From Synergistales bacterium (GTDB lineage Bacteria; Synergistota; Synergistia; Synergistales; JAFGMB01), in contig OY762654.1 in assembly GCA_963666205.1 (NCBI GenBank), positions 1,003,220-1,067,219 on the forward strand: 64,000 nucleotides of DNA, written 5' to 3'. The position numbers were made by a program, and so were the translations under genes. Positions 28,615 to 63,205 of the stretch are shown in pieces. Below the pieces are notes generated by a model. That model made no database searches and was not told where the DNA came from. It saw nothing but the letters and a program-made list of their open reading frames with translations. The stretch's first letter is position 1. Every line of letters starts with the position of its first letter.

Positions 28615-29316
28615 GCCCTGTCCGGTAAACCGATTTTGGATTTTAGATTTTGGATTTTAGATTAGATCCATTGAGTTTCTCCGTGGTGAAAAGCTTCTGG
28701 TGCTGTTTTTTTCTTTTATCGTGCAAAATAGATCCATCATTTTGCACAGTAGAAAAAAGATTTGAGGGCTTCCTCTGCGACCTCTGCGGTAAACCGATTT
28801 TAGATTTTGGATTTTAGATTTTGGATTAGATCCATTGAGTTCCTCCGTGGTGAAAGGGTTTGGGTCCTGTTTTTTTCTTTTATCGTGCAAAATAGATCCA
28901 TCATTTTGCACAGTCGACAAAGTGGCCTATTTCTTGATCTCCTAGACCCGCGAAGCGTCCGCCCGTCCCCGGTTTATTCAGTGGTTTTTGGCGGATCTGC
29001 GGTAAAACAGCTTTTGATTTTGACCTGGTTTCCCTCCGTGCTACTCCGTGCCCTCCGTGGTGAAACAGGTTTTTGGGTTTACGGTTCTAATCGTGCAAAA
29101 TAGGTCCATCATTTTGCGCAGCACACCATTGTTTATGTTTTACATCTGCGTTACTCTGCGCAACCTCAGCGCTGAAAGTCCGCCACTACTTGGGTCTAAT
29201 GGTTTTATACGATGGTTTACGGCGGATCCTCTGCGGTAAACCGATTTTGGATTTTAGATTTTGGATTTTAGATTTTGGATTAGATCCATTGAGTTCCTCC
29301 GTGGTAAAACAGCTTT
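28615..29316. repeat. Mosaic repeat patch: M1/M2 blocks, GATTTTR heptamer arrays, three hairpin A copies, and modules 5 and 6.
   Basis: The module set is the same as at 41-56 kb. Heptamer arrays lie at 28631-28668, 28795-28832 and 29241-29285. Hairpin A copies lie at 28721-28747, 28885-28911 and 29093-29119. A CTCCGTG x3 block lies at 29030-29060. Confidence 0.9.
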
Positions 29317-41239: not shown

Positions 41240-41460
41240 GAATCGAAAATCTAAAATCCAAAATCCAAAATCGGTTAACCGCAGAGGGTCCGCCGTAAAC
41301 CATCGTATAAAACCATTAGACCCAAGTAGTGGCGGACTTTCAGCGCTGAGGTTTCGCAGAGTAACACGCAGGAAGACAAGAACCGTAGGGTGCTGCTTTA
41401 GCGCACCGAAACGACCAAGGTTGATAGATGTCACGAAATCGTAAATTTGTACCAGGAAGG
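41240..41460. repeat. Mosaic repeat patch in inverted orientation: heptamer array, M1, module 5, and a degenerate hairpin B.
   Basis: This is the reverse complement of the module string seen at 29141-29290 and 42829-43000. Confidence 0.9.
41351..41415. repeat. Left arm of the perfect 65-bp inverted repeat bracketing the DUF4143 ATPase gene.
   Basis: By manual reverse-complementing, it is identical to 42829-42893 (GTCGTTTCGGTGCGCTAAAGCAGCACCCTACGGTTCTTGTCTTCCTGCGTGTTACTCTGCGAAAC). Confidence 0.9.
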
Positions 41461-41646: not shown

Positions 41647-42825
41647 ATGATCAAAAGATATATTGCAGATATTATCAGGGAAGATCTCCAACATAAAATG
41701 GTGTTCATAGGCGGCCCAAGACAGGTAGGAAAAACTACCCTCGCAAAAATGATAGGTGAAGATTACCCCTCTTTCACCTATCTGAACTGGGATTTCCGCC
41801 CCCACAGAGAAGCTCTTGTAAGATCGACACTACCTGCTGAAACAAATCTCCTGATCCTTGACGAGATCCACAAATATCCTGATTGGAAATCTCTGATAAA
41901 GGGGATCTGGGACACCAGGACAGGCGACGAATCCATTCTGGTAACTGGAAGCTCCAAGCTGGACATTTACAGAAGAGGCGGGGATTCTCTCCTTGGCAGG
42001 TACCACTATTTTCGACTTTATCCTTTGACTCTGAAAGAACTGAATTCTCAAGCTCCCGTAGGCATGGATTTCCCGGATAAAGCTCCGAAACTTGATCTGG
42101 ACTTATCGGGGAAAGGATTGGACAAGCTCCTTTTTTTTGGAGGTTTTCCAGAACCTCTGCTTTCGGAAAGCGAAAGGGTATTGAAAAGGTGGCAAAGAGA
42201 AAGATTTGAAAGGGTCTTCAGAGACGATATCAGGGAAACAGAGAACATAAGATCTCTTGCACAGATAGAGCTTCTGGCAGCTATGCTTCCATCCAGGGTG
42301 ACATCACCCTTATCTCTGAATTCTCTGGCTGAAGACCTGGAAACCAGTTCAAACACAGTAAAAAGCTGGATGGATCTTCTTTGCAGAAATTATTTCACCT
42401 TTAAAATACCTCCATATCACAAGCGTCTTGAAAGGGCTCTCAAAAAAAGTTCTAAATACTATCTTTGGGACTGGTCCGAAATAAAGGATGAAGGTGCACG
42501 TTTTGAAAACCTTATGGCAGTTCATTTGTTGAAATATGCACATTTTATCCAGGACAGCCATGGAATTTCTGTTGAACTGTATTACCTCAGGGATACTGCT
42601 AAACGGGAAGTGGATTTTCTGCTGACTTGGCAAGACAAACCCTGGATTCTTGTCGAAACCAAGGTTAACCATGGTGATAGTTTAACCTCTCTGAACTATT
42701 TTGCAGATAAGCTTGGAGTTGATGAAAAATATGTAGTATGTCTGAATGATAAAAAAGATTACCTCGACAGGAACTCCGGCGTAAGGGTAATACCTGCAAG
42801 CAGATTTCTAATGTCCCTTGTGTGA
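41647..42825 (+). CDS. AAA+ ATPase with a C-terminal DUF4143 (AAA_14 + DUF4143 family).
   Basis: The Walker A is GGPRQVGKTT and the Walker B is LLILDEIH. The length is 392 aa and the RBS is AAGAGGT. Confidence 0.8.
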   Translation: MIKRYIADIIREDLQHKMVFIGGPRQVGKTTLAKMIGEDYPSFTYLNWDFRPHREALVRSTLPAETNLLILDEIHKYPDWKSLIKGIWDTRTGDESILVTGSSKLDIYRRGGDSLLGRYHYFRLYPLTLKELNSQAPVGMDFPDKAPKLDLDLSGKGLDKLLFFGGFPEPLLSESERVLKRWQRERFERVFRDDIRETENIRSLAQIELLAAMLPSRVTSPLSLNSLAEDLETSSNTVKSWMDLLCRNYFTFKIPPYHKRLERALKKSSKYYLWDWSEIKDEGARFENLMAVHLLKYAHFIQDSHGISVELYYLRDTAKREVDFLLTWQDKPWILVETKVNHGDSLTSLNYFADKLGVDEKYVVCLNDKKDYLDRNSGVRVIPASRFLMSLV

Positions 42826-43710
42826 TCAGTCGTTTCGGTGCGCTAAAGCAGCACCCTACGGTTCTTGTCTTCCTGCGTGTTACTCTGCGAAACATTTGCG
42901 CTTACAGTCCGCCTTAACGTCTTTGTAAGATGGTTTGCGGCGGATCCTCTGCGGTAAACCGATTTTAGATTTTGGATTTTAGATTTTGGATTAGATCCAT
43001 TGAGTTCCTCCGTGGTGAAAGGGTTTTAACGGTTCAGCTTTACGGTTCTTAGGTTTAACTCGTGCAAAATAGTATCACCGTTTTGCGCAGTAGAAAAAAG
43101 ATTTGAGGGCTTCCTCTGCGCTCTCTGCGCCCTCTGCGGTAAAATAGCTTTTGATTTTGACCTGGGTTCCCTCCGTGGTGAAAGGGTTTAACGGTTCAGC
43201 TTTACGGGTTTTCATGGCACAAAGCTGCGCTTTCGTGCCTCCACAAAACCTTTATCTCAGTAGCATCTGGTCCGAATGTACGAATCTTTCATCTTACTCC
43301 TGAAGAGTTACCCCAAGGGTTTATGTCTTCCTCTGCGCTCTCTGCGCCCTCTGCGGTAAAATAGCTTTTGACTTTGACCTGGGTTTCCCTCCGTGTACCT
43401 CCGTGCCCTCCGTGGTGAAAAAGTTTGGGGTGGATGTTATAGTTACTGGTTTTATTGTTTCCATGGCACAAATCTCCGATTTCGTGCCTCCCCAAAACCT
43501 TTATCTCAGTAGCATCTGGTCTGAATGGATGTTGACATGGAACTCAACTTTATCTTACCGGCCCGAAGGTCCGCCCGTCCACGGTTTGTTTAGATGGGTT
43601 TTGGCGGATTTCCTCTGTGCTCTCTGCGCCCTCTGCGGTAAAACAGCTTTTGACTTTGACCTGGTTTCCCTCCGTGGTACTCCGTGTCCTCCGTGGTGAA
43701 AAGGTTTGGG
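42826..43710. repeat. Mosaic repeat array: four consecutive M1-linker-M2-hairpin super-units.
   Basis: M1 blocks lie at about 42945, 43113, 43328 and 43610. M2 blocks lie at about 43005, 43168, 43385 and 43665. Hairpin A lies at 43062-43088. Hairpin B copies lie at 43216-43239 and 43465-43488. Confidence 0.9.
42829..42893. repeat. Right arm of the 65-bp perfect inverted repeat.
   Basis: It begins 3 nt after the ATPase stop codon. See 41351-41415. Confidence 0.9.
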
Positions 43711-45075: not shown

Positions 45076-45164
45076 ATGCGCACCCCCAAAATCAAAAAAT
45101 ACAGAAGATATATTCTGCAAATATATCTTCTGTATTTTAAGGGCTGCTCTTATAAATTGCAAAT

Positions 45165-45547
45165 AGTCCTTTCGGTGCGCTCTCTGCGGTAAACCAGCTT
45201 TTGCCTTAGGTTTTATGTTTTCCTCAGATATTCCTCCGTACCCTCCGCAGTAAAAGTGTCTACTGTTTTCAGGTTTTATGTTTCCCTCTGTGCCCTCCAG
45301 GTCTAATCTTTACCATGGCACAAAGCTGCGCTTTCGTGCCTCCACAAAACCTTAAAGTTAAGATGTAATCTATCTGAACTGTCAAAAAAGGAATAAATCC
45401 TGAATATTATGTCAAAGAAGTCTTGTTTTCCTCATGTTTTACCTCTGCGGTACTCTGCGTGACCCCTGCGCCCTCTGCGGTAAAACAGGTTTTGACTTTG
45501 ACCTGGGTTTCCCTCCGTGGTGAAAGGGTTTTAACGGTTCAGCTTTA
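45165..45547. repeat. Mosaic repeat patch.
   Basis: M1 blocks lie at about 45178 and about 45440-45485. A degenerate M2 lies at about 45230 and an M2 at about 45510. Hairpin B lies at 45317-45340. The terminal module TTTTAACGGTTCAGCTTTACGG overlaps the stop codon of the next gene. Confidence 0.9.
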
Positions 45548-47686: not shown

Positions 47687-47724
47687 CCACTCCCCGAAGA
47701 AAAGTCAAACAAAAAACGAACCAG

Positions 47725-47895
47725 AACAATTTTACCGCAGAGGACGCAGAGAACGCAGAGGAAAGCGTAACCCTGAGTGAACCATTTTTCTTTAACCTGC
47801 TGCGTATATATTTCCGAGTTCATCCGCTCAGACCTTATCCAACTTAGACTGAGGTTAATGGATGTCACATAATCATAGATTTGTGCCAGGAGAAA
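47725..47895. repeat. Inverted copy of the hairpin B-tail-M1 element (about 165 bp).
   Basis: The reverse complement aligns along its length with 51753-51925. Hairpin B lies at 47864-47887 and M1 at 47731-47761. Confidence 0.85.
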
Positions 47896-47930
47896 CTCTA
47901 GCCATAAATTCTGGCTGGTTACTGGATTTA

Positions 47931-48308
47931 CTACAGCCCGTTGGCAAATCGGGTTATACCATCCTTAAGTTTGACTACATTGAAATTAATAAGCAATCCT
48001 AGTTTCTTGCCGCTCAGTTTCAAGTAAGAAAGGATCTGAGCCTTATGTATATCCGTTATTTTTTCAACGGATTTAAGTTCAATAATAATCTCGTCCTCTA
48101 CAACCAGATCCAGACGATAACCCAAGTCTATTTTGACTTCATCATAAATCACAGGAAGAACTTTCTGGGACTCAACTTTAAAGCCTCTTTTATTTAATTC
48201 ATAACAAAGACAAGCTTCATATGAACTTTCGAGAAGACCCGGACCTAAAGCAGAATGTACTTTAACAGCGCTATCAATAATTTCTTTGCTTATCTCATTT
48301 ATCTCCAT
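47931..48308 (-). CDS. GxxExxY protein (small PD-(D/E)XK nuclease-superfamily protein).
   Basis: A 125-aa protein with GPGLLESSYEACLCYEL (the GxxExxY motif) and D...ELK core residues. It is a paralog of 55280..55657. Confidence 0.85.
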   Translation of the reverse strand: MEINEISKEIIDSAVKVHSALGPGLLESSYEACLCYELNKRGFKVESQKVLPVIYDEVKIDLGYRLDLVVEDEIIIELKSVEKITDIHKAQILSYLKLSGKKLGLLINFNVVKLKDGITRFANGL

Positions 48309-48384
48309 AGGTCTGAATACCCCCCAATTCAGTCATGACAAAACCCTAACCATTCTACAACAAAATTGTTTTTGGTTTTGCCTC

Positions 48385-48890
48385 TAAGTCGTGCAAAACC
48401 GAGTCTGGTTTTGCGCAGTAGGAAAAAGATTTGCGGGTTTCCTCTGCGCTCTCTGCGCCCTCTGCGGTAAAACAGGTTTGAGGGTAGATTTTATAGTTTC
48501 CGTTTTTATTGTTTCCATGGCATAAATCTACGATTTCATGCCATACATCAACTTTGAGGTAAAGTAGTATCTAGTCCGAACATTCTGAACCCAGAATTGG
48601 GAAAATCCCATATTCCGCAATGTTTTAAGCTTTTCCTCCGCGGTACTCTGCGCTCCCTCTGTGTCCTCTGCGGTAAAACAGGTTTGAGGGTAGATTTTAT
48701 AGTTTCCGTTTTTATTGTTTTCATGGCACAAATCTACGATTTCGAGCCTCCCCAAAACCTTTATCTTCGTAGGATATGGTCTGTCCGGACAAATATCACA
48801 TGTTATTCATGAACAGTTATACCAAGGTTTTACGCCTTCCTCCGTGGTAAAAGGGTTATAACGGTTCAGCTTCACGGGTTTTACTCTTGA
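48385..48890. repeat. Mosaic repeat patch.
   Basis: Hairpin A lies at 48391-48416. M1 blocks lie at about 48440 and about 48635. Hairpin B copies lie at 48519-48542 and 48725-48748. An M2 lies at about 48838. Confidence 0.9.
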
Positions 48891-48923
48891 AAAAGGAAAC
48901 TTCATGTTTCAAAGTAAACCATT

Positions 48924-49505
48924 TTATTTTACTCTCATTACAACTCCGCCATTGCCCCCAACATTTGCTGGATTTTCCGATGCTATAAATAAACTCTTCG
49001 AAGGATCATCAAGATTCTCGCTCAGGGAACCATCATAGATCCCGCTTTCGGGAGACATCCTTTCCAGCTGTTTTCTGATCGAATAATCCGCATAGGTATT
49101 AGTAACATTGGCTGCAACATAAATATGAACATCTGGAGTGGCATAGGAAGGATCGCTTCCCGGCCCGGAAACATAGATAAAGTACGGGTTCTTTGAAGCA
49201 TTATTCCAATCCTTTGGACCCGTTATACTGTGAGGTTCAGGTATACCCCTGTCCAGGTATTGGCTCAGGCTGTTTATGCTAATTACACCCCAACCCTGCT
49301 CACTCTGGGAAAACCACTGCTGATTATCAGCATAGTACATAACTACTGCAGTCTTGAGAACTTCCAGGTTTGAGACTATCTTTGTCGCCTCGCTCTTACT
49401 GGTCGCGCTTCCGATTGTGATCATAAGAGAACCTGAGAGAATGCCTATAATGATGATTACAATGAGGATCTCTATAAGGGAAAAACCTCTGCTGCGCTTT
49501 TTCAA
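48924..49505 (-). CDS. Prepilin-type N-terminal cleavage/methylation domain protein (type IV pilin / pseudopilin-like).
   Basis: MKKRSRG-FSLIEILIVIIIIGILSG is a class III signal sequence. The TTG start follows AGGGAGG. Confidence 0.8.
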   Translation of the reverse strand: MKKRSRGFSLIEILIVIIIIGILSGSLMITIGSATSKSEATKIVSNLEVLKTAVVMYYADNQQWFSQSEQGWGVISINSLSQYLDRGIPEPHSITGPKDWNNASKNPYFIYVSGPGSDPSYATPDVHIYVAANVTNTYADYSIRKQLERMSPESGIYDGSLSENLDDPSKSLFIASENPANVGGNGGVVMRVK

Positions 49506-49694
49506 CTCTCAATTACCTCCCTGGCTGATTAGTATGTGGGATCTTGAACACCATTGAATAGTGTACAGACCTGTTTTCTAACCACCAGGGCAAAAAAGCC
49601 TGTTTTCCAGGGGACAGGAAGACCAATTTCCCAGGGACTTATGGACCATTTGTATTTCTCATTCGCTCAAGTCCCCCATACCTGGGTGTATTTA

Positions 49695-50300
49695 GCCTTA
49701 TCGGTGCGCTGGAGCGCACCCTGCAAAACTTTATCTTACCGGGCCGAAGGTCCGCCCGTCCTCGATTTGTTTAGTGGGTTTTGGCGGCTTTCCTCCGTGG
49801 TAGAAAGGTTTACGGTTCTAAGGTTCCAATCGTGCAAAATAGTATCACCGTTTTGCGCAGCATGTATTATAACAAGTGGTTATGACTTTCCTCCGTGCTA
49901 CTCCGTGACCTCCGTGGTAGATAGGTTTTAGCGTTTGGGCTTTACGGGTTTTCATGGCACAAATCTACGATTTCGTGCCTCCCCAAAACCTTTATCTTCG
50001 TAGGATATGGTCTGTCCGGACAAATATCGGATGTTATTCCTGTTCAGGTATACCAAGGTTTTACGCCTTCCTCCGTGTCCTCCGTGGTGAAAGGGTTATA
50101 ACGGTTCAGCTTTATGGGTTTCCATGGCACAAATCTTCGATTTCGTGCCTCTCAAAAACCTCAATCTTAGTAGTATTGGATCTTGCAAAACATAACCAAA
50201 GATTAGTCGCAGCATATTTATACAAAAGGGGTTAAGCTTTCCTCTGCGCTCTCTGCGCCCTCTGCGGTAAAACAGGTTTTGACTCTGATTTTGACTTTGG
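49695..50300. repeat. Mosaic repeat patch.
   Basis: Module 6 lies at about 49725-49795. M2 blocks lie at about 49790, 49890 and 50070. Hairpin A lies at 49832-49858. Hairpin B copies lie at 49956-49979 and 50126-50149. An M1 lies at about 50240. Confidence 0.9.
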
Positions 50301-50305
50301 TTTTG

Positions 50306-50339
50306 ATAAAAAAAGAGGATAGCCTTTCGGCTACCCTCT
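50306..50339 (-). terminator. Rho-independent terminator after the sorting-signal protein gene.
   Basis: The minus strand reads AGAGGGTAGCC-GAAA-GGCTATCCTCT followed by TTTTTTTAT. Confidence 0.85.
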
Positions 50340-50360
50340 CTCAATTATCTTCTCAGCTTA

Positions 50361-50918
50361 TTACTTCAGCAGCCACACCAGCGGTAAAGCCAGCAGACCC
50401 ATCAGAGGGCTTACAGCCCCGGCGTTACAACCGCCGCCACCGCCACCACCGGAAGTCTCTTCTTCTGCATTTACAAGATAGACCTGGGAAGTTGAAAAAT
50501 ACAGAGAAGGATCTGTTATTGTGGCAACTCCATTCACGACCTCGATAAAATCATAATAATCAGAATGATTCTGGATCAATATACCATCGGGATCAAGACC
50601 GGTACCCCTCACATCAATGGTTACTGTTCCAACAGGCGTAGTATCGTAGACTGCTTCCACACCCGCAAGGACGACGATCGTATAAGTTCCGCTTACCGGC
50701 ATATTAATATGATCACTGGTCACGCTGGAACTTAAAATACAAGAGGCACAGGAGTCCGTATCTGGAGAAAATATGATAGTCCCTGGATCAATGGACGTGT
50801 AAATCTCCGTATCGACATGTCCAACATGGCCTATATCATGACCTACCACAGCCATACCTACCGACGCAAAAACAAGAACAAGTGCTGCAGAAACTGCAAA
50901 AAGAACAACTTTTTTCAT
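50361..50918 (-). CDS. Secreted protein with a C-terminal Gly-run/Cys/TM/basic sorting signal (Synerg-CTERM-like).
   Basis: The signal peptide is MKKVVLFAVSAALVLVFASVGMA. The C-terminus is ...EEETSGGGGGGGCNAGAVSPLMGLLALPLVWLLK. The RBS is GGAGGGGG. Confidence 0.6.
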   Translation of the reverse strand: MKKVVLFAVSAALVLVFASVGMAVVGHDIGHVGHVDTEIYTSIDPGTIIFSPDTDSCASCILSSSVTSDHINMPVSGTYTIVVLAGVEAVYDTTPVGTVTIDVRGTGLDPDGILIQNHSDYYDFIEVVNGVATITDPSLYFSTSQVYLVNAEEETSGGGGGGGCNAGAVSPLMGLLALPLVWLLK

Positions 50919-51090
50919 GAATATATCCCCCTCCAGAAGAGAAATGATAAAAAATCAGTTATAACGTATACAGAAACGAACCAACCCGGATTATAAACCT
51001 AACAACTTTATAGAGCAATATTAAAAAGATCTGAATACCGGAAATGTTACATTAGACCTATCCACCACAAAGGAAATATTTAAAAACATG

Positions 51091-51243
51091 TTTAACCGCA
51101 GAGGACGCAGAGAAAACCGGGAGGAAAGCATAAAAACATCGCTATGTAGATTTTATTAATCTCCTGTTTTATATATACATGACCTGATCCTACTAAGATA
51201 AAGGTTGATGTATGGCATCAAATCATCGATTTGTGCCAGGAAG
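51091..51243. repeat. Inverted copy of the hairpin B-tail-M1 element.
   Basis: M1 lies at 51091-51113 and hairpin B at 51214-51237. It is colinear with 54837-54985 and 47731-47887. Confidence 0.85.
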
Positions 51244-51444
51244 CAAATATTTACAGTGGGCATCGAAGAAAATAACCTGGTTTTTTACCTGGAATATTTT
51301 AAATTGACTTAATTTTTATGTTCCATCATGTGATACCAGCGGCAGAAAAAGGTTCTCTTTTCTGCCGGCAGTCAACCTTAAAAAACAAAGAAATATTGTA
51401 ATAAAACCGTAGAGTCAAAAACATTGCCCAAATTAAGTTTCAGT

Positions 51445-52217
51445 ACTTGGGTTCCCTCTGCGCTCTCTGCGCCCTCTGCGGTTAGCTTAGGGTTAATAGG
51501 GGTAAAAGGTTTACGGTTCAGGTTTACGGGACCAATCGTGCAAAATAGTTCCATCATTTTGCGCAGCATAACAAGGAGTGTTAAGGGCCGAATGTCCGGC
51601 CAACCCGGCTTTAAGTTTTTTAGGAAGATCTTTGACGGAGGTTTTTGGCGGGTTTCCTCTGCGGTAAAAGAAAGATACTGAATTTGTTTTTGACTTTGGT
51701 TTTATTGGTTAAGAGGTTTTCCTCTGTGACCTCTAGTTCGAAAGCACTACCTGGCACAAATCTACGATTTGGTGCCATACATCAACCTCAGTCTAAGTAG
51801 CATAAGATCTGAGTGGACGTAACATCGGAATAAACACGCAGTATATGGATAAAATGGTTTGACGGGTTTCCTCAGGGTCTACCTCTGCGAAACTCTGCGT
51901 AACCTCAGCGTCCTCTGCGGTAAAACAGCTTTTGATTTTGACCTGGTTTCCCTCCGTGTCCTCCGTGGTAGATAGGTTTTAGCGTTTTGGCTTTACGGGT
52001 TCCCATGGCACAAATCTCCGATTTTGTGCCTCCGGAAAAACTTGTTCACCAGGTTTTGTAAGTTTCAGGTTCTCGTTCTTAATCGTGAAAAATCTAGTCT
52101 GATTTTTCGCAGCATGTTTCTTAAATCATTTGGTCTCGTTTTCCTCTGCGCTTCCTCTGCGCTCTCTGCGCCCTCTGCGGTAAAATAGCTTTTGACTTTG
52201 ACCTGGTTTCCCCTCCT
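51445..52217. repeat. Mosaic repeat patch.
   Basis: M1 blocks lie at about 51455, 51655, 51880 and 52140. Hairpin A copies lie at 51538-51564 and 52085-52110. Hairpin B copies lie at 51753-51776 and 52007-52030. An M2 lies at about 51950. Confidence 0.9.
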
Positions 52218-52434
52218 GCAAAGTTATCAGTCTTGCATACATACGGTTAAAATCAAGGTCTGACCCCATTCTTTTTTTATACTGATAATTCTTTTCATAA
52301 ATTTCACAGGACCTTTTTCCCACTTTTTTCGGGTCAGGATCTGTATTTAATCTTGACCCTATGGTAAAACTGAATAAAAGTTCAAATATTTAATATTCCA
52401 TACTTTTAAGAATATACATTATAATGTTTTTCTC

Positions 52435-52463
52435 TTGACTTTCCTTATTTAACTGCACATAAT
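52435..52463 (+). promoter_or_regulatory. Predicted sigma-70 promoter of the EPS export operon.
   Basis: TTGACT (52435-52440), a 17-nt spacer, then CATAAT (52458-52463). It lies in an AT-rich tract about 145 nt upstream of the Wza-like start. Confidence 0.45.
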
Positions 52464-52608
52464 GAAATCATTGAGAGTATCACGAGTTAGAGAACAAACC
52501 CTTCCCCTGTAAAACTATTACAATTAAATCTGAAGAGTTAGACAGTTGAAGTCAAAATTCAATGACCTTTTCTTTCTTACTTAGAGTAATTACACTTAAA
52601 CGTCGGGA

Positions 52609-54836: not shown

Positions 54837-55245
54837 GTTTTACCGCAGAGGTCGCAGAGAGCGCAGAGGAAACCGAAAGGCAGGCATAAAAATTTCGCTG
54901 TGTAGGTTTTTATTAATCTCCTGTTTTATACATGCATGACTTGATCCTACTAAGATAAAGGTTGATGTACTTTTGTGCCATGGGCATAAAGAAAATCATC
55001 AATTCTAAGAGCAAAACATGTAGTTACCTCAGAGGACGCATCGGAAAATTATAAAGAATGCAATGTTGTTTACTCTTTTGACCGTTTATTATTCTAGAAG
55101 GTTTTGGCGGATTTCATGTAGACAGGAAGTTCTAGGGGGCTAATCGTGAAAAATCTAGTCTGATTTTTCGCAGTAATACAGATTTTACAGGTTTAACGGT
55201 TTCCTCTGCGCTCTCTGCGACCTCTGCGGTTAGCTAAGGGGTTTA
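54837..55245. repeat. Mosaic repeat patch.
   Basis: An inverted M1 lies at 54837-54869, with a truncated hairpin B at about 54965-54980. The forward hairpin A-M1 unit lies at 55144-55232. Confidence 0.9.
55144..55232 (+). repeat. Left copy of the 89-bp direct repeat flanking GxxExxY gene 2.
   Basis: 88/89 identical, by manual comparison, to 55868-55956 (TCGTGAAAAATCTAGTCTGATTTTTCGCAGTAATACAGATTTTACAGGTTTAACGGTT[T/C]CCTCTGCGCTCTCTGCGACCTCTGCGGTTA). Confidence 0.9.
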
Positions 55246-55279: not shown

Positions 55280-55657
55280 ATGGAAATTAATGAAATTAGC
55301 AAAACAATTATCGACAGTGCTTTCCAAGTTCACAAAGCATTAGGACCAGGTCTCCTCGAAAGTGCATATGAAGCCTGCCTCTGCTACGAACTCAAGAAAA
55401 GAGGATTTACAGTAGAATCCCAGAAAGTTCTCCCGATAATTTACGATGGACAACAAATTGATGTTGGTTATCGCCTGGATCTTCTTGTACAAGATCAGGT
55501 CATAGTAGAACTCAAATCTGTTGAACATATAAATGAGGTACATAAAGCACAGATACTCTCGTATCTCAAACTTGGTAATAAGAAACTCGGACTACTTATC
55601 AATTTCAACGTAGCCAAAATCAAGGACGGGATAACCCGTATCGTCAACGGTTTGTAG
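55280..55657 (+). CDS. GxxExxY protein (PD-(D/E)XK nuclease superfamily), paralog 2.
   Basis: A 125-aa protein with GPGLLESAYEACLCYEL. By hand alignment, about 78% of residues are identical to 47931..48308. Confidence 0.85.
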   Translation: MEINEISKTIIDSAFQVHKALGPGLLESAYEACLCYELKKRGFTVESQKVLPIIYDGQQIDVGYRLDLLVQDQVIVELKSVEHINEVHKAQILSYLKLGNKKLGLLINFNVAKIKDGITRIVNGL

Positions 55658-55744: not shown

Positions 55745-55965
55745 GTCGGTCAAAATGGGTTGATCATTTTGACCAGTAGAGATTTTTATACAAAAAAGAT
55801 GTTTTTAGGTTTTCTCTGCGCTCTCTGCGGTTAGACAGGATTTAGACTTTAGGGTTGCCGGTTTTATTCGTGAAAAATCTAGTCTGATTTTTCGCAGTAA
55901 TACAGATTTTACAGGTTTAACGGTTCCCTCTGCGCTCTCTGCGACCTCTGCGGTTAAACAGTATT
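55745..55965. repeat. Mosaic repeat patch, including the right copy of the 89-bp direct repeat (55868-55956).
   Basis: A hairpin A variant lies at 55748-55774. An M1 lies at about 55812. A hairpin A lies at 55870-55895. An M1 lies at about 55925-55955. Confidence 0.9.
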
Positions 55966-55993: not shown

Positions 55994-57223
55994 ATGACAC
56001 CAGAAGAACAACTCGCACAACAAAACAACCAGCAATATTACTACGAAGACGACGAGATCGACATCCTCGATCTGCTCATTGTCCTTGCCAAACACAAAAA
56101 ACTCATCCTTGGCCTCACTACCCTATTTGCGGTTCTTTCCATCGCCTATGCCCTCCTGGCCACACCCATCTACCGGGCAACCACAAAGATACTGCCCCCC
56201 ATGGCTGGCAAACAGAGCATGGCCATGAGCATGATCGCCCAGGCAGGCGTACCCGGCTTTGCCGCCGATGCCCTTGGCATCAAGACCCCCGGAGACCTTG
56301 TGGTGGGTATCGTCAAAAGCCGTACAATCATGGATAAACTGATAAATAAATTCGACCTTCAGGCCAGGTATGAATCCGAAAACATGGATCTCACCAGAGA
56401 GACTCTTTCCACCTCCACTTCTGCCGCAACCGATGCAAAAACGGGCCTTGTTTCCATTTCCATTGAAGACAAAGACCCTGCCTTTGCTGCCCAGCTTGCC
56501 AACAGCTACGTGGAGGAACTGCAGAACTTCATCCAGCAATTAGCCATAAGCGATGCCGCCCAGCAGCGTCTGTTCCTGGAAGAACAGGTAAAGGAAACCC
56601 AGGTAAACCTTTTGAAGGCCGAAAATGAACTTACCGAATACCAGAAAAAAACGGGGATCCTCAATGCCGGCCAGCAGGCATCGTCCCTTATGTCTGCCAT
56701 CGCCACCTTCCGGGCCCGCATATCCGCCAAGGAAGTGGAACTCCAGGCAGCAGAGACCTTTGCCTCTCCAAACAACCCCAGGATCCAGAAACTCAGGGCC
56801 GAGGTCAAGGGCCTTAAAGAACAGATCCAGAAACTGGAAGCCCAGGCAACGGAGGGCAGCGAAGAATCCTTCAACCTAAGCGAACTTCCAGATGCAGGCA
56901 TGGAATACCTCCGTAAGATGAGGGACCAGAAGTTCTACGAGACCTTATACGGCATGCTCCTGAGCCAGTTCGAGCAGGCAAAGATGGCCGAAGCCCAGGA
57001 ACCTGCCATCATACAGGTTATAGATGAGGCAGTGCCTCCACAGCTCAAGGCAAAACCAAAACGGAAACAGGTTGTGATCCTTGCCACGGTTCTCGGATTT
57101 TTCCTGTCCATATTTATGAGTTTTGTGATGGAATTTATTGAGAATGCAACAACGGATAACGAACGCAATGAAAAATTAAAACTGTTAAAAAAACATTTGA
57201 GTTTAAGAAAACAGCAGAACTAA
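55994..57223 (+). CDS. Polysaccharide co-polymerase / chain-length determinant (Wzz/GumC-type, no kinase domain).
   Basis: EIDILDLLIVLAKHKKLILGLTTLFAVLSIAYALLATPIYRAT is the Wzz N-terminal TM motif. It is followed by a long coiled-coil periplasmic region and a C-terminal TM. Confidence 0.8.
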   Translation: MTPEEQLAQQNNQQYYYEDDEIDILDLLIVLAKHKKLILGLTTLFAVLSIAYALLATPIYRATTKILPPMAGKQSMAMSMIAQAGVPGFAADALGIKTPGDLVVGIVKSRTIMDKLINKFDLQARYESENMDLTRETLSTSTSAATDAKTGLVSISIEDKDPAFAAQLANSYVEELQNFIQQLAISDAAQQRLFLEEQVKETQVNLLKAENELTEYQKKTGILNAGQQASSLMSAIATFRARISAKEVELQAAETFASPNNPRIQKLRAEVKGLKEQIQKLEAQATEGSEESFNLSELPDAGMEYLRKMRDQKFYETLYGMLLSQFEQAKMAEAQEPAIIQVIDEAVPPQLKAKPKRKQVVILATVLGFFLSIFMSFVMEFIENATTDNERNEKLKLLKKHLSLRKQQN

Positions 57224-57328
57224 AGTCTGAGAGTAAAAAGTTTTGAATATCATTTCCAGAAGAATCCAAGGATAAGAGCCATATTTCACTCGATTCAACG
57301 AATACTATCGAGAAAGGAACGTGTACTC

Positions 57329-58792
57329 ATGAATGGCTCAACATATGCAATAAAGAAGGAAGAACATGTTTTTTCGGGGTCAAGGTATGGCTATCTTCAG
57401 CAATGGATGATGCCCTTCACTTTATTGTCTTCAGATATTATGGCTTTCTTCTTCTCATGGGCAATAGCGATAGTTGTTGCGACCCTTATGGGTAAAAACA
57501 TTGCTTTAGCAGACTATCTGAATTTCCTTTATTTCATACCACTATTTCTCTTTGCCTTTTTGCTAAGCGGACTCTATTCCAGAACAAGTACAAACCCTGT
57601 AGAAGAGATCAGAAAATTATCATTGATAACGTCCTTTTCATTCTTTTTTTTGATCACAGGCATATTTATCATGCATCGGGAAAGCCTCTTCTTTTACTCA
57701 AGGTTTACAATTTCCCTGGCAGGGCTCTCATCTCTGGCAATTATTCCTCTATTGCGAAGCTTTACAAGACATCTTTGCGCCCATAACGCATGGTGGGGGA
57801 CTCCAGTCCTGATCCTGGGTGCTGGAAAAACTGGACAGATGATCGCCAGAAAAATAAATGAAACACCATCTTTAGGTTTGAAATTGATTACTATTCTGGA
57901 TGACGATCATGATAAACAGCTTGATACACTGTATTTCCCTGCATCAGGTCCCATTTCTGATATGCGAAATATAGCTATAAACAACAGGCTCTGTAAAGTG
58001 CTTATTTGCATGCCTGGAGTGAGTAAAGAAAAAGTCATCTCCATCATGGACGAATGCACCAGGTATTTTAACCATGTGACAGTGATTCCGGACCTTTTTG
58101 GTATGTCTTCTCTCTGGGTAAACGCAAAAGATATTGGAGGGGTATTAGCCCTTGATATACAGAATTCTTCTCTCTCCACCAGTGCTCAGTTTATTAAGAG
58201 GACTGTGGATGTATTTTTGGTACTAACGGGTGGATTTTTGATTCTCCCTCTAATTTTAATTGTCTCTTTATTTGTAAAACTGGACTCACCTGGTCGTATC
58301 TTTTATGGCAATAAACGAGTTGGAAAGAATGGAAAAAACTTTCTTTGCTGGAAATTTCGAAGTATGAAACAAAATGCAGATGAATTACTCAATTCCTATT
58401 TAGCTAAAGATCCCACGCTTCAAAAAGAATGGGATAAAACACAGAAACTTCAGAATGACCCTCGCATAACAAAGATCGGGAAATCGCTAAGGAAATGGAG
58501 CATTGATGAACTACCCCAACTCTGGAATGTTTTAAAAGGAGAAATGAGTCTGGTTGGACCCAGGCCATGTTTTGAAGAACAGTTGAAGATGTACGGGAAT
58601 AATCAACATCTTTATACCAGCGTTAAGCCAGGTATCACAGGGTATTGGCAGATATCTGGAAGAAACTCTCTTAACTTTGAAGATCGAGTCAGACTTGAGA
58701 GATATTACGTAAGCAACTGGTCAATATGGCTTGATATATATATCCTCGCCAAAACGATAATGGTTGTAATTAAAGGCGAAGGGGCTTATTAA
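57329..58792 (+). CDS. Undecaprenyl-phosphate sugar-1-phosphate transferase (WbaP/EpsB-type priming enzyme).
   Basis: N-terminal TM helices and a Rossmann-like linker are followed by the C-terminal bacterial sugar transferase domain (KRTVDVFL...DSPGRIFY...RVGKNGK.F...KFRSM...DPRITKIG..LRK.SIDELPQLWNVLKGEMSLVGPRP). Confidence 0.85.
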   Translation: MNGSTYAIKKEEHVFSGSRYGYLQQWMMPFTLLSSDIMAFFFSWAIAIVVATLMGKNIALADYLNFLYFIPLFLFAFLLSGLYSRTSTNPVEEIRKLSLITSFSFFFLITGIFIMHRESLFFYSRFTISLAGLSSLAIIPLLRSFTRHLCAHNAWWGTPVLILGAGKTGQMIARKINETPSLGLKLITILDDDHDKQLDTLYFPASGPISDMRNIAINNRLCKVLICMPGVSKEKVISIMDECTRYFNHVTVIPDLFGMSSLWVNAKDIGGVLALDIQNSSLSTSAQFIKRTVDVFLVLTGGFLILPLILIVSLFVKLDSPGRIFYGNKRVGKNGKNFLCWKFRSMKQNADELLNSYLAKDPTLQKEWDKTQKLQNDPRITKIGKSLRKWSIDELPQLWNVLKGEMSLVGPRPCFEEQLKMYGNNQHLYTSVKPGITGYWQISGRNSLNFEDRVRLERYYVSNWSIWLDIYILAKTIMVVIKGEGAY

Positions 58793-58833
58793 GACGTCGC
58801 CCTCAATTAATTAAGGCTACATGGTGAACTTAC

Positions 58834-59391
58834 TTGAATAAAAAAATTATAGATTTAAGTCAAGCTGGATATGGGAAATTTAAAAGGACGAGATCCAAAT
58901 GGATTGAGGCTTTATGGATTATAGTGGAATTTTGCTTTGTAACAAATCCCATACAAGTTTCAAGTAAATTACGTATTCTGCTTATCAGGATGTTTGGAGG
59001 AAAAATCGATAAAAATGTAATCATGAGGCCCAGAGTTCGGATCAAGTTTCCTTGGAATCTGGAAATCGGAAATAACTGCTGGATTGGTGAAGGTGTTTGG
59101 ATACATAACCAGGATAAGGTCTACATTGGCAATAATACAGTTATTTCACAAGAGGCATTTATAACAACTGGTTCCCATGATCATTACAAAACCATGGATT
59201 TGATCACAAAACCAGTCAGGATTGGTTCTGGTGTCTGGATAACCTCCAGAGCAATGATATTGCTAGGTGTTTCAATAGCTGATAATGCAATAATTACACC
59301 CAACAGTGTTGTACATCGAAACATAGAAAAAGCCGGAATTTATTGCGGAAATCCTGCTGTTTTGATAAAAGAGAGGAAGATCACAGATTAA
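58834..59391 (+). CDS. Hexapeptide-repeat O-acetyltransferase (WcaF-like).
   Basis: The pattern LRILLIRMFGGKIDKNVIMRPRVRIKFPWNLEIGNNCWIGEGVWI...TGSHD is characteristic of colanic-acid WcaF-type acetyltransferases. Confidence 0.8.
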   Translation: MNKKIIDLSQAGYGKFKRTRSKWIEALWIIVEFCFVTNPIQVSSKLRILLIRMFGGKIDKNVIMRPRVRIKFPWNLEIGNNCWIGEGVWIHNQDKVYIGNNTVISQEAFITTGSHDHYKTMDLITKPVRIGSGVWITSRAMILLGVSIADNAIITPNSVVHRNIEKAGIYCGNPAVLIKERKITD

Positions 59392-60634
59392 TCTTCTTGT
59401 AATAAGTCTTAATTATGCACCGGAACTTGTTGGTGTTGGAAAGTATTCTTCGGAAATGTGTTCCTGGTTTGTATCGAGGGGGCATTCAGTAGATGTCATA
59501 GCCGGATTACCACATTACCCCGAGTGGGAAATACATCAAGAATACAAGAATAAAGGATTCTACACAGAAGCGATTGATGGAGTAAATATTTTAAGAGTAC
59601 CCCATTTTGTTCCTCCAGCAGATAGAGTTAATGCTAAAACCAGAATTAAACTTGAAACAAGCTTTCATTTAAAATCATTGAGATATGCGTTGCCAATTTT
59701 ATTCAAAAAGAAGAAATACGATGCTGTTATAGCAGTCTGCCCTCCAATGCAGTCAGGTTTGTTCCCAATGATATACAAGATCTTTAGAAATGTCCCATGG
59801 ATATTTCATGTACAGGACCTCCAGGTAGATGCCGCCCTAAATCTTGGTATTTTAAAAAATCACACTATCATTAGAAAAATGCTATTTGGGATTGAAAAAA
59901 TGCTTTTTAAAAATGCTACAAAGGTTTCAACGATCACTGATGCGATGAAACAGAAGATCATTAATAAAGGTATTGATCCAAACAAAATGGTTCTTTTCCC
60001 AAATTGGGCTGATCTGGATTTTATTAAACCTATGGATAGAAATAATCCCTTAAGAAAAGAATTTGGCTATACAGAAGACGATACTGTAATCATGTATGCC
60101 GGTAATATGGGTGAAAAACAGGGACTCGAAATAATTATTGATGCAGCATGTCATTTTACACAAGATTCAAACATCCAGTTTGCCATGGTTGGCGACGGGA
60201 CTGCAAAAAAAAGGTTAACTAAATTAACTCGAGACAAAGGGCTTACCAACCTTCATTTTTTCCCATTGCAACCTCTTCAGAAATTACCGAATCTCCTAGC
60301 CATGGCAGATATTCATCTGGTTATCCAAAAAAGGGAGGCTTGTGACTTAGTTATGCCATCGAAATTAACTAATATTTTGGCTGCTGGAAGACCTATTATA
60401 GCAACTGCAAAATATGGAAGCCACTTATATCAAGTTATTGTTGAAAACCAATGTGGTTTGGTTTTAAAGTCACACAGGACAGTTGAACTAATTGAAGGCA
60501 TCAAAAATCTCACCAATCAAGCCCTGATGGTAGAACAAATGGGACAAAAATCTCGATTTTATGCCATAAACTATTTTGATAAAGAAAAGATCCTCCAAGA
60601 AATGGTATATAACATAAATCGGATAATGACCTAA
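59387..60634 (+). CDS. WcaI-like GT4 glycosyltransferase. The conserved N-terminus lies upstream of the first ATG, so the start is probably non-canonical (ATT).
   Basis: The track ORF starts at 59456 (MCSWFVSRGH). The in-frame upstream codons encode NLLVISLNYAPELVGVGKYSSE, the conserved WcaI N-terminal motif. No ATG, GTG or TTG occurs between the stop at 59366-59368 and 59456. The ATT at 59387 lies 6 nt after AGGAAGA. Confidence 0.7.
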   Translation: MNLLVISLNYAPELVGVGKYSSEMCSWFVSRGHSVDVIAGLPHYPEWEIHQEYKNKGFYTEAIDGVNILRVPHFVPPADRVNAKTRIKLETSFHLKSLRYALPILFKKKKYDAVIAVCPPMQSGLFPMIYKIFRNVPWIFHVQDLQVDAALNLGILKNHTIIRKMLFGIEKMLFKNATKVSTITDAMKQKIINKGIDPNKMVLFPNWADLDFIKPMDRNNPLRKEFGYTEDDTVIMYAGNMGEKQGLEIIIDAACHFTQDSNIQFAMVGDGTAKKRLTKLTRDKGLTNLHFFPLQPLQKLPNLLAMADIHLVIQKREACDLVMPSKLTNILAAGRPIIATAKYGSHLYQVIVENQCGLVLKSHRTVELIEGIKNLTNQALMVEQMGQKSRFYAINYFDKEKILQEMVYNINRIMT

Positions 60635-60787
60635 TTGTGATGGATACATAAATATAGATAAAAATGCAAATTATCCCTGCTAGGAATTGGTAACTTATTT
60701 CCCTAAAAGAATATGAATTGACCTTAGGTTTTACTATTTGTAAACACAAGATTTCTCGTAGTATTAAATTATTAGTATGAGAAAGGA

Positions 60788-61906
60788 ATGGAAATGAAAG
60801 AAGAAGACGGCCGCGTAAAGATCGTGTTATTATCACCTCTCCCACCTCCATCCGGAGGTATTGCTACTTGGACAAGCTCTATCTTAAGAAGCAGATTGAC
60901 CAAGCACTATAAATATATTCTTGTTAATACCAGGATAACAAGTCAAAGAGGGACGAGTGAATCATGTTGGCAATTTCCTTTTAGTGAATTAGCTAGAAAT
61001 GGAAAGATAATCTTTAATTTTCTTTATGCTATTTTTTATCATTCACCTAAGCTTGTCCATATAAACAACGCTTCATGGAGTTTTGGTGGTATTTTCAGGG
61101 ATTTACTCTTAGCTACCATATCAATAATTTTTAGGAAAAAAGTAATCATTCATTTTCATGATTGTTTAGTGTATCGACCAAAGTCTTTGTTCTATAGATT
61201 TTTATTAACTCAGTTAATTAAAACTTCAACTCTGATTATCACCTTAGACAAAAAATCAGAGAAATTTATAGAGAATCTTTCGATAAAACATAAGAATTAT
61301 AGTTTCTCTCTATGTAACATTCCAAATTTTATTGACAATAACAAAATATTACTAGATTCAGAAAATATGCATTCAATAAAGAATGTCAAAGTTTTATTTG
61401 TTGGAAGTATAACAAAAAACAAAGGATGTCGCGACATCCTTGAAGTTGCAAGATCATTACCAGAGATACAGTTTACGCTTATTGGTAAGGTCCAGTCAGA
61501 TATGATCGAATTGGTCAGAAAAATAGCTGAGCCCAACATTAAGTTTATCTCTGAAATATCGAATCGAGAAGTATTGAAAGAAATGCAAAAAGCCAATATT
61601 TTTTTGTTACCTTCATATAAAGAAGGATTCCCATTAGTTATTCTTGAAGCAATGGCAAACAGATTACCTGTAATAGCAACAAATGTAGGAGCTATACCTG
61701 AAGTTATCATTCAAAACAAGGGTGGATATGTGCTTAAACCAGGTGATGTTCAATCGATGAAAGAATTGTTAACAAAACTTAGATTAAACCTAGATTTAAG
61801 GTTGGAAATGGGTGAGTTTAATTTTGACTTTGTTTCTAAGAAGTTTCTTCTGTCAAACATTGAAAAATACCTTTACGAAGCATATCAGAAAGTCCTCTCG
61901 AAATAA
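60788..61906 (+). CDS. GT4-family (group 1) glycosyltransferase.
   Basis: The N-terminus is KIVLLSPLPPPSGGIATW. The C-terminus is LLPSYKEGFPLVILEAMANRLPVIATNVGAIPEVI (the E-x7-E region). Confidence 0.75.
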   Translation: MEMKEEDGRVKIVLLSPLPPPSGGIATWTSSILRSRLTKHYKYILVNTRITSQRGTSESCWQFPFSELARNGKIIFNFLYAIFYHSPKLVHINNASWSFGGIFRDLLLATISIIFRKKVIIHFHDCLVYRPKSLFYRFLLTQLIKTSTLIITLDKKSEKFIENLSIKHKNYSFSLCNIPNFIDNNKILLDSENMHSIKNVKVLFVGSITKNKGCRDILEVARSLPEIQFTLIGKVQSDMIELVRKIAEPNIKFISEISNREVLKEMQKANIFLLPSYKEGFPLVILEAMANRLPVIATNVGAIPEVIIQNKGGYVLKPGDVQSMKELLTKLRLNLDLRLEMGEFNFDFVSKKFLLSNIEKYLYEAYQKVLSK

Positions 61907-62012
61907 AAGCTAAGTACAGAGAAAATAGGTTTTCAAGAACCTTTTGGATTATAACATTGATTGATTGATTGATTTCTTGAACAGTACCAAGAGATCGGAT
62001 TAATAAAATTGG

Positions 62013-63140: not shown

Positions 63141-63205
63141 CGCTGTCATAATCTCCCCCAAAAGGAACTTACCTAATCAATAGCAACATTAGGAGGATTT
63201 TGCTC

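Follow-up and report, generated by a model that had tools for sequence, protein, structure and literature searches.

A bulged hairpin heads one class of mosaic repeat units at an exopolysaccharide locus of Acetomicrobium

The 64-kb stretch of contig OY762654.1 analyzed here, called the window below, contains a locus of exopolysaccharide and accessory genes. It encodes a DUF362/4Fe-4S protein, an AAA_14-DUF4143 ATPase, an ATPase_2-DUF234 protein, a YjbH-like protein, PDDEXK_3 proteins (two copies), a pilin-like protein, a 185-amino-acid open reading frame (ORF), a polysaccharide export protein, and Wzz. Arrays of short repeats occupy the intergenic spaces between these genes. Our subject is one component of the arrays, a short bulged stem-loop that we call hairpin B; it occurs alongside three sister modules (hairpin A, hairpin C, and module X) and a heptad repeat, the M block, of which M1 and M2 are two versions.

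A stem-loop with conserved pairing

Hairpin B is a 24-nt stem-loop; its stem has 10 bp and its loop 3 nt (T-N-Y), and one base of the 3′ arm is bulged. When the window was searched with the pattern GGCACAAATCNNNGATTTNGTGCC, also written GGCACAAATC-N3-GATTT-N-GTGCC (24 nt), allowing up to three mismatches, 12 matches were found (9 forward, 3 reverse), compared to none in 100 dinucleotide-preserving shuffles. A 13th copy, decayed and in reverse orientation, lies at about 54965-54980, and all 13 are intergenic. An earlier sequence-only reading of this DNA had listed these 12 sites and the truncated copy, and our search returned every one of them at exactly those coordinates. The variants it described, AAAGC/GCTTT at 43216 and 45317 and GGCAT/ATGCC at 48519, are also there, as are both of the tail types that it named. 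The bulged base, said to vary among C, G, and T, does so: C is found in 15 of the 29 distinct 24-mers, G and T in 7 each, and A in none.

To follow the element beyond one sequence, we compared the window with four further versions of the same locus (L018, L019, L020, and L021), making five strains. The reference was a metagenome-assembled genome (MAG) of Acetomicrobium hydrogeniformans, the species representative; the window is 85-98% identical to it and thus comes from a related strain, not the same strain. Three syntenic loci from other assemblies were found via the PDDEXK_3 protein (47931-48308, reverse) and are 92-99.5% identical. Among the five strains, gene identity is 90-100%.

A covariance model built from 33 hairpin B copies, run on 188 kb of Acetomicrobium sequence from the five strains, gave 71 full matches, 60 of them distinct. 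Standard pairing is found in 96.4% of the pair cells of these 60 copies, compared to 31-43% in slid controls, in which the 3′ partners were shifted by 1 to 3 columns. Double-sided changes affect four of the 10 stem pairs, with U-A replaced by G-C in 14 distinct copies, C-G by U-A in 4, G-C by C-G in 1, and C-G by G-C in 1. One further copy, AAAAG/CTTTT, has two adjacent pairs changed. The observed pairing, the number of covarying pairs, and the covariation score were reached by none of 500 column shuffles, and a smaller copy set agrees. Folded as RNA, typical copies have energies of −10.4 to −12.4 kcal/mol (z −3.4 to −5.0). The bulge is present in all intact copies; where the 3′ arm reads GATGCC, the minimum-energy fold retains 10 pairs with the bulge moved by one position, and one copy, that of L005, which lies on another contig, has a flipped hairpin whose bulge is on the 5′ arm. 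Conservation is highest at TGGCAC, which is invariant, at AAA/TTT, and at the first loop base, T. More generally, the invariant and near-invariant columns of the repeat unit are concentrated in the hairpin, while the rest of the unit diverges. Hairpin B is a real, stable stem-loop with conserved pairing.

Whether this conservation reflects function has to be weighed against several observations that speak against it. Uncompensated mismatches occur, including G2.A23 in the GTGAC subfamily and A.A and C.A cells. Two reverse copies in the window, at 47864 and 41430, are degenerate and fold poorly; the hairpin-unit sequence at 47864 is identical in all five strains, which argues against strong selection on the fold at every site. 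G.U cells number 4 and C.A cells 1 to 6, depending on how the bulge-shifted copies are scored, and these counts indicate no functional strand. Finally, both states of the main covarying pair are found with identical tails. Because tails are shared by both pair states and the arrays recombine (see below), it would be wrong to treat each double change as an event of its own; part or even most of the covariation may have been inherited or reshuffled and may reflect few independent changes. Thus, the earlier claim that the hairpin is maintained by compensatory changes stands insofar as pairing is kept through double-sided changes; the independence of those changes is what has been weakened.

A rival explanation is that of a neutral palindrome with no role of its own, amplified and homogenized within recombining units, in which copied ancestral variants, hairpin-templated repair, or gene conversion would give the look of compensation. 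The identical tails of both pair states, recombination at B itself, the persistence of the degenerate 47864 copy among strains, the decay of the 54965 copy, the lack of an orientation rule relative to genes, and the lack of cross-species conservation all fit this explanation. It accounts less well for a hairpin more conserved than any other segment of its unit, the rest of which diverges, for the level of pairing over 60 distinct copies with four variable pairs, and for a bulge that is retained despite shifts of position or arm. Also against it, only one of the 60 copies (L019:8036) is a mixed-arm G.A hybrid. We consider neutral amplification unlikely.

Two readings of the primary sequence were also considered, a remnant coding start (ATG GCA CAA ATC ...) and a sigma-54 −24 element (TGGCAC). 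Type I copies of the hairpin begin with CCATGGCAC, and an ORF at 43403-43699 reads through one copy; the TGGCAC of a −24 element is invariant in the hairpin. However, type II copies carry a CCTGG foot and hence no ATG, the variable loop base would fall in the second position of a codon (Ser/Tyr/Phe/Cys), and three codons would be rewritten in the AAAGC variant. The sigma-54 consensus is TGGCAC-N5-TTGC, and at the required spacing the copies have TACG, TCCG, TTCG, or TATG instead of the −12 TTGC. Both readings are contradicted by the sequence itself and are almost certainly wrong.

Repeat units, arrays, and their turnover among strains

A B unit consists of a 5′ foot, CC(A)TGG, followed by hairpin B, a semi-conserved tail, and an M block. 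Hairpin B always lies at the 5′ end of the unit, which closes in M1 or M2 or meets A, C, or X first (Table 1). Immediate flanks of the hairpin are CCAT, TCAT, or (T/C)CCT on the 5′ side and TCCC, TCCA, ATAC, ATCC, or ATAT on the 3′ side. The tails are a patchwork of several unrelated segments, with a conserved AGTAG box at a fixed distance, about 25 nt downstream of the hairpin. M blocks have three CTCTGCG or CTCCGTG heptads, spaced by 9-10 nt, and then GGT-A/G-AA. M1 reads CCTCTGCG-CT-CTCTGCG-CC-CTCTGCGGTAAAA, with CTCTGCG three times at a 9-nt period before GGT-R-AA, and is found in the window at 43108-43142, 48436-48470, 50236-50270, and about 20 other positions; M2 has the M1 design with CCTCCGTG heptads. 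The sequence-only reading had proposed an element of about 165 bp, present in both orientations. A colinear unit made up of hairpin, tail, and M block is indeed found in both orientations; as it had stated, 51753-51925 (+) matches the reverse complement of 47731-47887, the alignment running from the hairpin over the tail into the M1 block. The length, on the other hand, is not fixed and varies from roughly 130 to 260 nt.

Table 1. Hairpin B copies and repeat arrays in the window, with the fold of the hairpin as RNA
Feature	Position	Strand	Fold
Hairpin B, AAAGC/GCTTT, type I, loop TGC, bulge C; unit to M1 ending 43359	43216..43239	+	−12.4 kcal/mol, z −3.4
Hairpin B, consensus stem, loop TCC; unit via module X (43558-43577) to M1 ending 43641	43465..43488	+	−10.4 kcal/mol, z −5.0
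Hairpin B, AAAGC/GCTTT variant; unit ends in M1 blocks 45442-45483	45317..45340	+	
Hairpin B, GGCAT/ATGCC, type II tail ATACATCAAC; unit ends in M1 48665-48676	48519..48542	+	−10.8 kcal/mol, z −4.9
Hairpin B, one uncompensated A.A mismatch (CGAGCC); unit ends in M2 48839-48851	48725..48748	+	
Hairpin B, consensus; unit ends in M2 50079-50091	49956..49979	+	
Hairpin B, loop TTC; unit ends in M1 50259-50270	50126..50149	+	
Hairpin B, type II (CCTGG foot, bulge G, tail ATACATCAACC); unit ends in M1 51912-51923	51753..51776	+	
Hairpin B, bulge T; hairpin A (52083-52112) in place of tail, then M1 52172-52183	52007..52030	+	
Hairpin B, degenerate (GGTAC...GTGAC: two G.U pairs and one G.A mismatch)	41430..41453	−	Minimum-energy fold without the hairpin
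Hairpin B, degenerate (A.A and G.A mismatches); unit ends in M1 47732-47743	47864..47887	−	
Hairpin B, loop GAT, GATGCC 3′ arm, bulge shifted one position; unit ends in M1 51093-51104	51214..51237	−	−11.6 kcal/mol with shifted bulge
Truncated hairpin B, loop and 3′ arm gone; tail and M1 (54840-54851) kept	54965..54980	−	
Array C-M1-M2-A-M1-M2-B-M1-M2-B-X-M1-M2, between convergent AAA_14/DUF4143 and ATPase_2/DUF234 genes	42830..43710	+	
Array A-M1-B-M1-B-M2	48309..48923	+	
Array X-M2-A-M2-B-M2-B-M1	49506..50360	+	
Composite region: reverse B unit (M1-, B-) facing forward array M1-A-M1-B-M1-M2-B-A-M1	50919..52608	.	

The heads A, B, C, and X stand in direct orientation within arrays, and the mosaic of modules covers 41-56 kb of the window plus a smaller patch at 28.6-29.3 kb. 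The array in that patch (28678-29308), upstream of an MFS transporter gene, has A, M1, and M2 modules and no hairpin B. Hairpin A (TCGTGCAAAA...TTTTGCGCAG) occurs at 43060-43090, 48389-48418, 49830-49860, 51536-51566, 52083-52112, 55144-55173, and 55868-55897; it too has double-sided changes (GTGCAAAA/TTTTGCGC versus GTGAAAAA/TTTTTCGC versus GGTCAAAA/TTTTGACC), has a U.G pair on the + strand, and has a folding energy of −11.6 to −11.8 kcal/mol (z −3 to −3.9). Hairpin C (GGTGCGC-TAAA-GC-A-GCACC) is found at 42837-42857, 41387-41407, and 49703-49720; in two copies it has a one-base bulge in the 3′ arm, as B does, and the third is a perfect 7-bp palindrome. The reverse B copy at 41430 runs into the second of these, at 41387-41407, and then into M1 (41276-41287).

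Beyond hairpin B, RNAalifold found no conserved structure across copies, and the folding energy of whole units was no better than that of shuffles (z −1.8 and 0.0). A second tail helix and an outer helix around B (GGGUUUU/AAAACCU) were tried and rejected, since they appear only in single folds of some subfamilies, are not in the RNAalifold consensus, and are missing from type II. An intrinsic terminator was rejected as well; no terminator-like site coincides with hairpin B, and the region has 10 such sites versus 15.5 in shuffles.

These results bear on the possibility that the units are small-RNA genes, with B as the 5′ stem-loop of an RNA of about 130-180 nt, or cis-regulatory elements of 5′ or 3′ untranslated regions. 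The hairpin is stable as RNA and tolerates four G.U pairs on the given strand. At 47864 (YjbH), 51214 (185-amino-acid ORF), and 52007 (export gene), hairpin, tail, M1, and gene start are codirectional, with the M1 of the 47864 unit lying 46 nt upstream of the YjbH-like gene start, and M1 blocks in metagenomes are commonly 10-50 nt upstream of a ribosome-binding site. Set against this are the lack of a consensus fold beyond the hairpin, tails made of unrelated segments, and the lack of any enrichment of promoter-like (sigma-70) or terminator-like sites in the region, none being tied to modules. Orientation relative to neighboring genes is not fixed, with at least 7 of the 13 window copies antisense to flanking genes. 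Rfam 15 gave no match in the region at the gathering threshold, and at E ≤ 1 gave two chance matches to miRNA families, both on a palindrome at 45096-45138. Nothing seen here speaks for the discrete transcript of about 160 nt raised by the sequence-only reading, and we regard a small-RNA or untranslated-region role as improbable.

Gene order is the same in the five strains, and each array differs among them in the number and order of its units. The interval between the ATPase_2 and YjbH genes has one B unit in the window versus four in L020. Three genes are present or absent by strain, the pilin-like (N_methyl) gene (48924-49505), the 185-amino-acid ORF, which has no Pfam match (50361-50918), and the second PDDEXK_3 gene (55280-55657), and all three sit between repeat arrays. 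The copy that is truncated at 54965 in the window has an intact counterpart downstream of the polysaccharide export gene in L019, L020, L021, and L018, of which L019 was compared base by base. We aligned two between-strain indels base by base. L021 has two extra A-M2 units at about position 48839 of the window, and both ends of the insertion are inside M2 blocks; L020 lacks a unit at 43216-43465, where two paralogous B units are fused and the junction lies at or beside the hairpin. Because the aligned indels end in M2 blocks or at hairpin B, they point to unequal homologous recombination within the array. The arrays gain, lose, and swap whole units in this way, between M blocks or between paralogous B copies.

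Other features of the host locus are recorded here. The AAA_14/DUF4143 ATPase gene (41647-42825) lies between inverted repeats of about 180-190 nt (41240-41420 and 42830-43000) in which short repeats of the GATTTTGGATTTTAG type occur with an M1 block and hairpin C; the 41430 copy of hairpin B is within the left arm. Given inverted repeats on both sides, the gene looks like cargo. The PDDEXK_3 ("GxxExxY") gene and its flanking repeats (47723-48537) are 98-100% identical in the five strains, whereas the YjbH-like neighbor is only 90-96% identical, which suggests either recent exchange of this cassette or strong constraint on it. The palindrome mentioned above (45096-45138) is an inverted repeat whose 20-bp arms match perfectly around a 3-nt loop (AAAATACAGAAGATATATTTGCAGAATATATCTTCTGTATTTT) and lies just upstream of the ATPase_2/DUF234 gene start. 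Elsewhere in the window, a SECIS_4 selenocysteine insertion element at 647-684 (−), scoring 38.4 bits versus a gathering score of 38, adjoins the gene for glycine reductase selenoprotein B (685-1731). The GC content is 37% at 56001-64000, the glycosyltransferase part of the polysaccharide locus, versus 45-51% elsewhere, and this drop suggests that the glycosyltransferase genes were acquired horizontally. With regard to a replication-strand bias of hairpin B (9 forward and 4 reverse copies), most of the window has a negative GC skew, to which the pyrimidine-rich repeats themselves contribute.

Distribution and the question of mobility

For a scan across species, one genome from each of 185,579 species was searched with the pattern made degenerate at two covarying pairs. 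The A. hydrogeniformans MAG had 13 exact matches, 11 of them on one contig. Eight other genomes had one match each, within the range expected by chance as estimated from the information content of the pattern. In the stretches of the MAG that were examined, the covariance model gave 22 full-length matches. B units are found on at least three contigs of this MAG; outside the polysaccharide locus, solo units occur on contigs 1 and 2, beside M-type blocks made of a third kind of heptad, CTTTGCG. The solo unit of L005 is between inverted M-type blocks (TTCACCGCAAAG...CTTTGCGGTGA). No copy of hairpin B was found in the first 100 M1-bearing metagenome loci (529 kb), and blastn gave no match in plasmids or phages. 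In these searches, hairpin B is confined to the A. hydrogeniformans lineage of Acetomicrobium (Synergistota).

The M block is different in this respect. Scanning metagenomes with CTCTGCG-NN-CTCTGCG-NN-CTCTGCGG gave at least 120 stretches, on contigs of 36-77% GC and from many different sequencing projects. Among the matches listed, most M1 copies continue GG-T-(G/A/T)-AA beyond the pattern, many are back-to-back inverted pairs, and many lie 10-50 nt upstream of the ribosome-binding sites of unrelated housekeeping genes; PDDEXK_3 is the only accessory protein family that recurs beside M1 (4 of 120 loci), and no transposase family recurs there in 630 kb of metagenome loci. Sister heptads beside M1 are CTCCGTG, CTTCGTG, CTTTGCG, and CGCGGAG. 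A minority of the matches, with GG or CC spacers and on GC-rich contigs, resemble coding tandem repeats. We found no paper that quotes the M1 sequence strings, and the genome announcement for A. hydrogeniformans OS1 does not mention repeats. The M block is thus not lineage specific and is common to many unrelated environmental bacteria.

The sequence-only reading had suggested that the hairpin-to-M1 unit might behave as a MITE (a miniature inverted-repeat transposable element). The units are indeed short, noncoding, multicopy, intergenic, and found in both orientations, as MITEs are. They differ from MITEs in having hairpin B at one end and a direct M block at the other; we saw no terminal inverted repeats, although no search was dedicated to them, and recombination between repeats accounts for the changes in copy number. 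The two aligned indels have their ends within repeats, and neither shows a target-site duplication or a clean empty site, for which no dedicated search was run. The MITE interpretation did not hold up.

A related possibility is a MITE- or REPIN-like element (the latter named for repetitive extragenic palindromic [REP] sequences) moved in trans by a transposase encoded elsewhere, for example, one of the Y1/HUH type, with inverted M blocks as possible bounds. Y1 transposases recognize a hairpin with an extrahelical base and a nearby box in single-stranded DNA (PMC3333891, PMC6006769). Hairpin B, with its bulge and the distal AGTAG box, may be compared to the subterminal hairpins at IS200/IS605 ends (PMC3333891) and to those of their derivatives, palindrome-associated transposable elements (PATEs) and the REP substrates of REP-associated tyrosine transposases (RAYTs). 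B units occur in both orientations and on several MAG contigs. Some solo units lie between inverted M blocks, as a REPIN-like variant might; the L005 unit and window positions 51093-51484 are each bounded by inverted M or M1 blocks, and back-to-back inversion of M1 is frequent in metagenomes. However, units are direct within arrays, the stem has no GTAG or CGTC tag beside it (a criterion of PMC3733652), copy number is low, and the copies are concentrated at one locus. No transposase, integrase, or HUH domain was found among the 44 ORFs of the window, nor a transposase in a simple ORF listing of six MAG loci, a listing that was not scanned against Pfam. Unlike in IS200/IS605 elements, in which left-end and right-end hairpins go with guide and cleavage tetranucleotides, there is no TnpA, TnpB, or RAYT gene nearby or in the window, the identity of the bulged base is not conserved, there is no left-end/right-end pair, and the copies are organized in arrays. 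We think it rather unlikely that hairpin B belongs to such an element.

Relation to known repeat systems and possible roles

REPs usually number more than 100 dispersed copies per genome (PMC2817692) and carry a tetranucleotide tag, GTAG or CGTC, on one side of the palindrome (PMC3733652); bacterial interspersed mosaic elements (BIMEs) are regularly spaced REPs in alternating orientation, with linker motifs between them (PMC2817692). Hairpin B has much in common with these. Both are small (about 24-35 nt, within the range of about 20-40 nt that defines REPs) palindromes made imperfect by a mismatch or bulge, and like REPs hairpin B is extragenic, occurs in both orientations, forms mosaics with other short motifs, and is tied to recombination and genome plasticity. 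It differs in its AT-rich inner stem (that of REPs is GC rich), in lacking the tag and any sequence similarity, and in the lack of a RAYT (Y1 transposase) among the window ORFs.

The architecture of neisserial intergenic mosaic elements (NIMEs), Neisseria-specific sequences in which RS units are separated by dRS3 repeats, was reportedly described by Parkhill et al. in 2000. dRS3 is a 20-bp inverted repeat, ATTCCC-N8-GGGAAT. The arrays resemble NIMEs in having several families of units of 50-150+ nt joined by a short repeat, with the M block in the place of dRS3, and in being concentrated at surface-structure loci and strain-variable genes as proposed recombination substrates; NIMEs themselves are associated with pilin loci (PMC3184786). 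The differences are that the joint is a direct heptad triplet rather than a 20-bp inverted repeat (dRS3 itself was not searched for), that the phylum is another and there is no sequence similarity, and that the joint, M1, is found in many unrelated environmental genomes.

Since copy number, dispersal, orientation, tag, and sequence all set it apart, hairpin B is not a member of the REP, BIME, or NIME families. Judged by these likenesses, it is most likely a lineage-specific relative of REP/BIME/NIME-type repeats and not a demonstrated MITE or small-RNA gene. We somewhat favor the view that one class of units in the mosaic repeats has hairpin B as its conserved head and that this stem-loop serves, in RNA or single-stranded DNA, as a structured site of the REP kind. 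Together with the sister heads A, C, and X, B units are strung head to tail, filling intergenic spaces, and we imagine that the stem-loop forms in transcripts that read through the arrays or in DNA that is transiently single stranded. Both its structure and its sequence would be retained, and it may be recognized as sequence plus shape. Known roles of REPs include mRNA stabilization and protein binding (PMC3184786, PMC2817692); similarly, hairpin B could be a protein-recognized site that affects the stability or processing of mRNA 3′ ends or that recruits a DNA-binding or recombination protein. It would then be neither an autonomous or MITE-type mobile element nor a stand-alone small-RNA gene. 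Some points weigh against this view, in addition to those raised above for the fold: hairpin B has only about 13-25 copies per genome, mostly at one locus, where REPs are numerous and dispersed; its units are direct where BIMEs alternate; and its function is inferred rather than demonstrated.

One can also envision that the arrays are traces of some recombination or cassette system not yet described, with the M block as a crossover or attachment site and the bulged heads (B and its sisters A, C, and X) as lineage-specific folded elements recognized by an enzyme acting in trans. The enzyme could be a coresident nuclease-fold protein (PDDEXK_3 "GxxExxY," AAA_14-DUF4143, or ATPase_2-DUF234), and gene-free units and accessory cassettes (PDDEXK_3, the DUF4143 ATPase, and the pilin-like gene) would move between M sites. 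Integrons offer a partial parallel; attC sites are imperfect hairpins with extrahelical bases, and here, as with integron cassettes, small accessory genes of these same kinds are present or absent by strain with repeats between them. Unlike integrons, the locus has no intI or attI, its genes are in both orientations, and most units are gene free; hairpin B is also far shorter than attC and has no R′/R″ core (GTTRRRY). We put this forward as a speculative proposal with a low probability of being right.

To our knowledge, no such repeats have been described before in Synergistota. The most interesting wider lead is the cosmopolitan M1 block, with its possible link to nuclease-fold accessory genes. 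On the practical side, the arrays will break short-read assemblies of Acetomicrobium and can be used as strain markers. If our favored view of hairpin B as a REP-like head of mosaic units is correct, Synergistota would have a REP/BIME/NIME-like system of their own, made of direct arrays of hairpin-headed units joined by heptad triplets, and the phylum would have a concrete, testable structured element. Such a system would drive rapid, strain-level restructuring of an exopolysaccharide/surface locus, including the gain and loss of small accessory genes.

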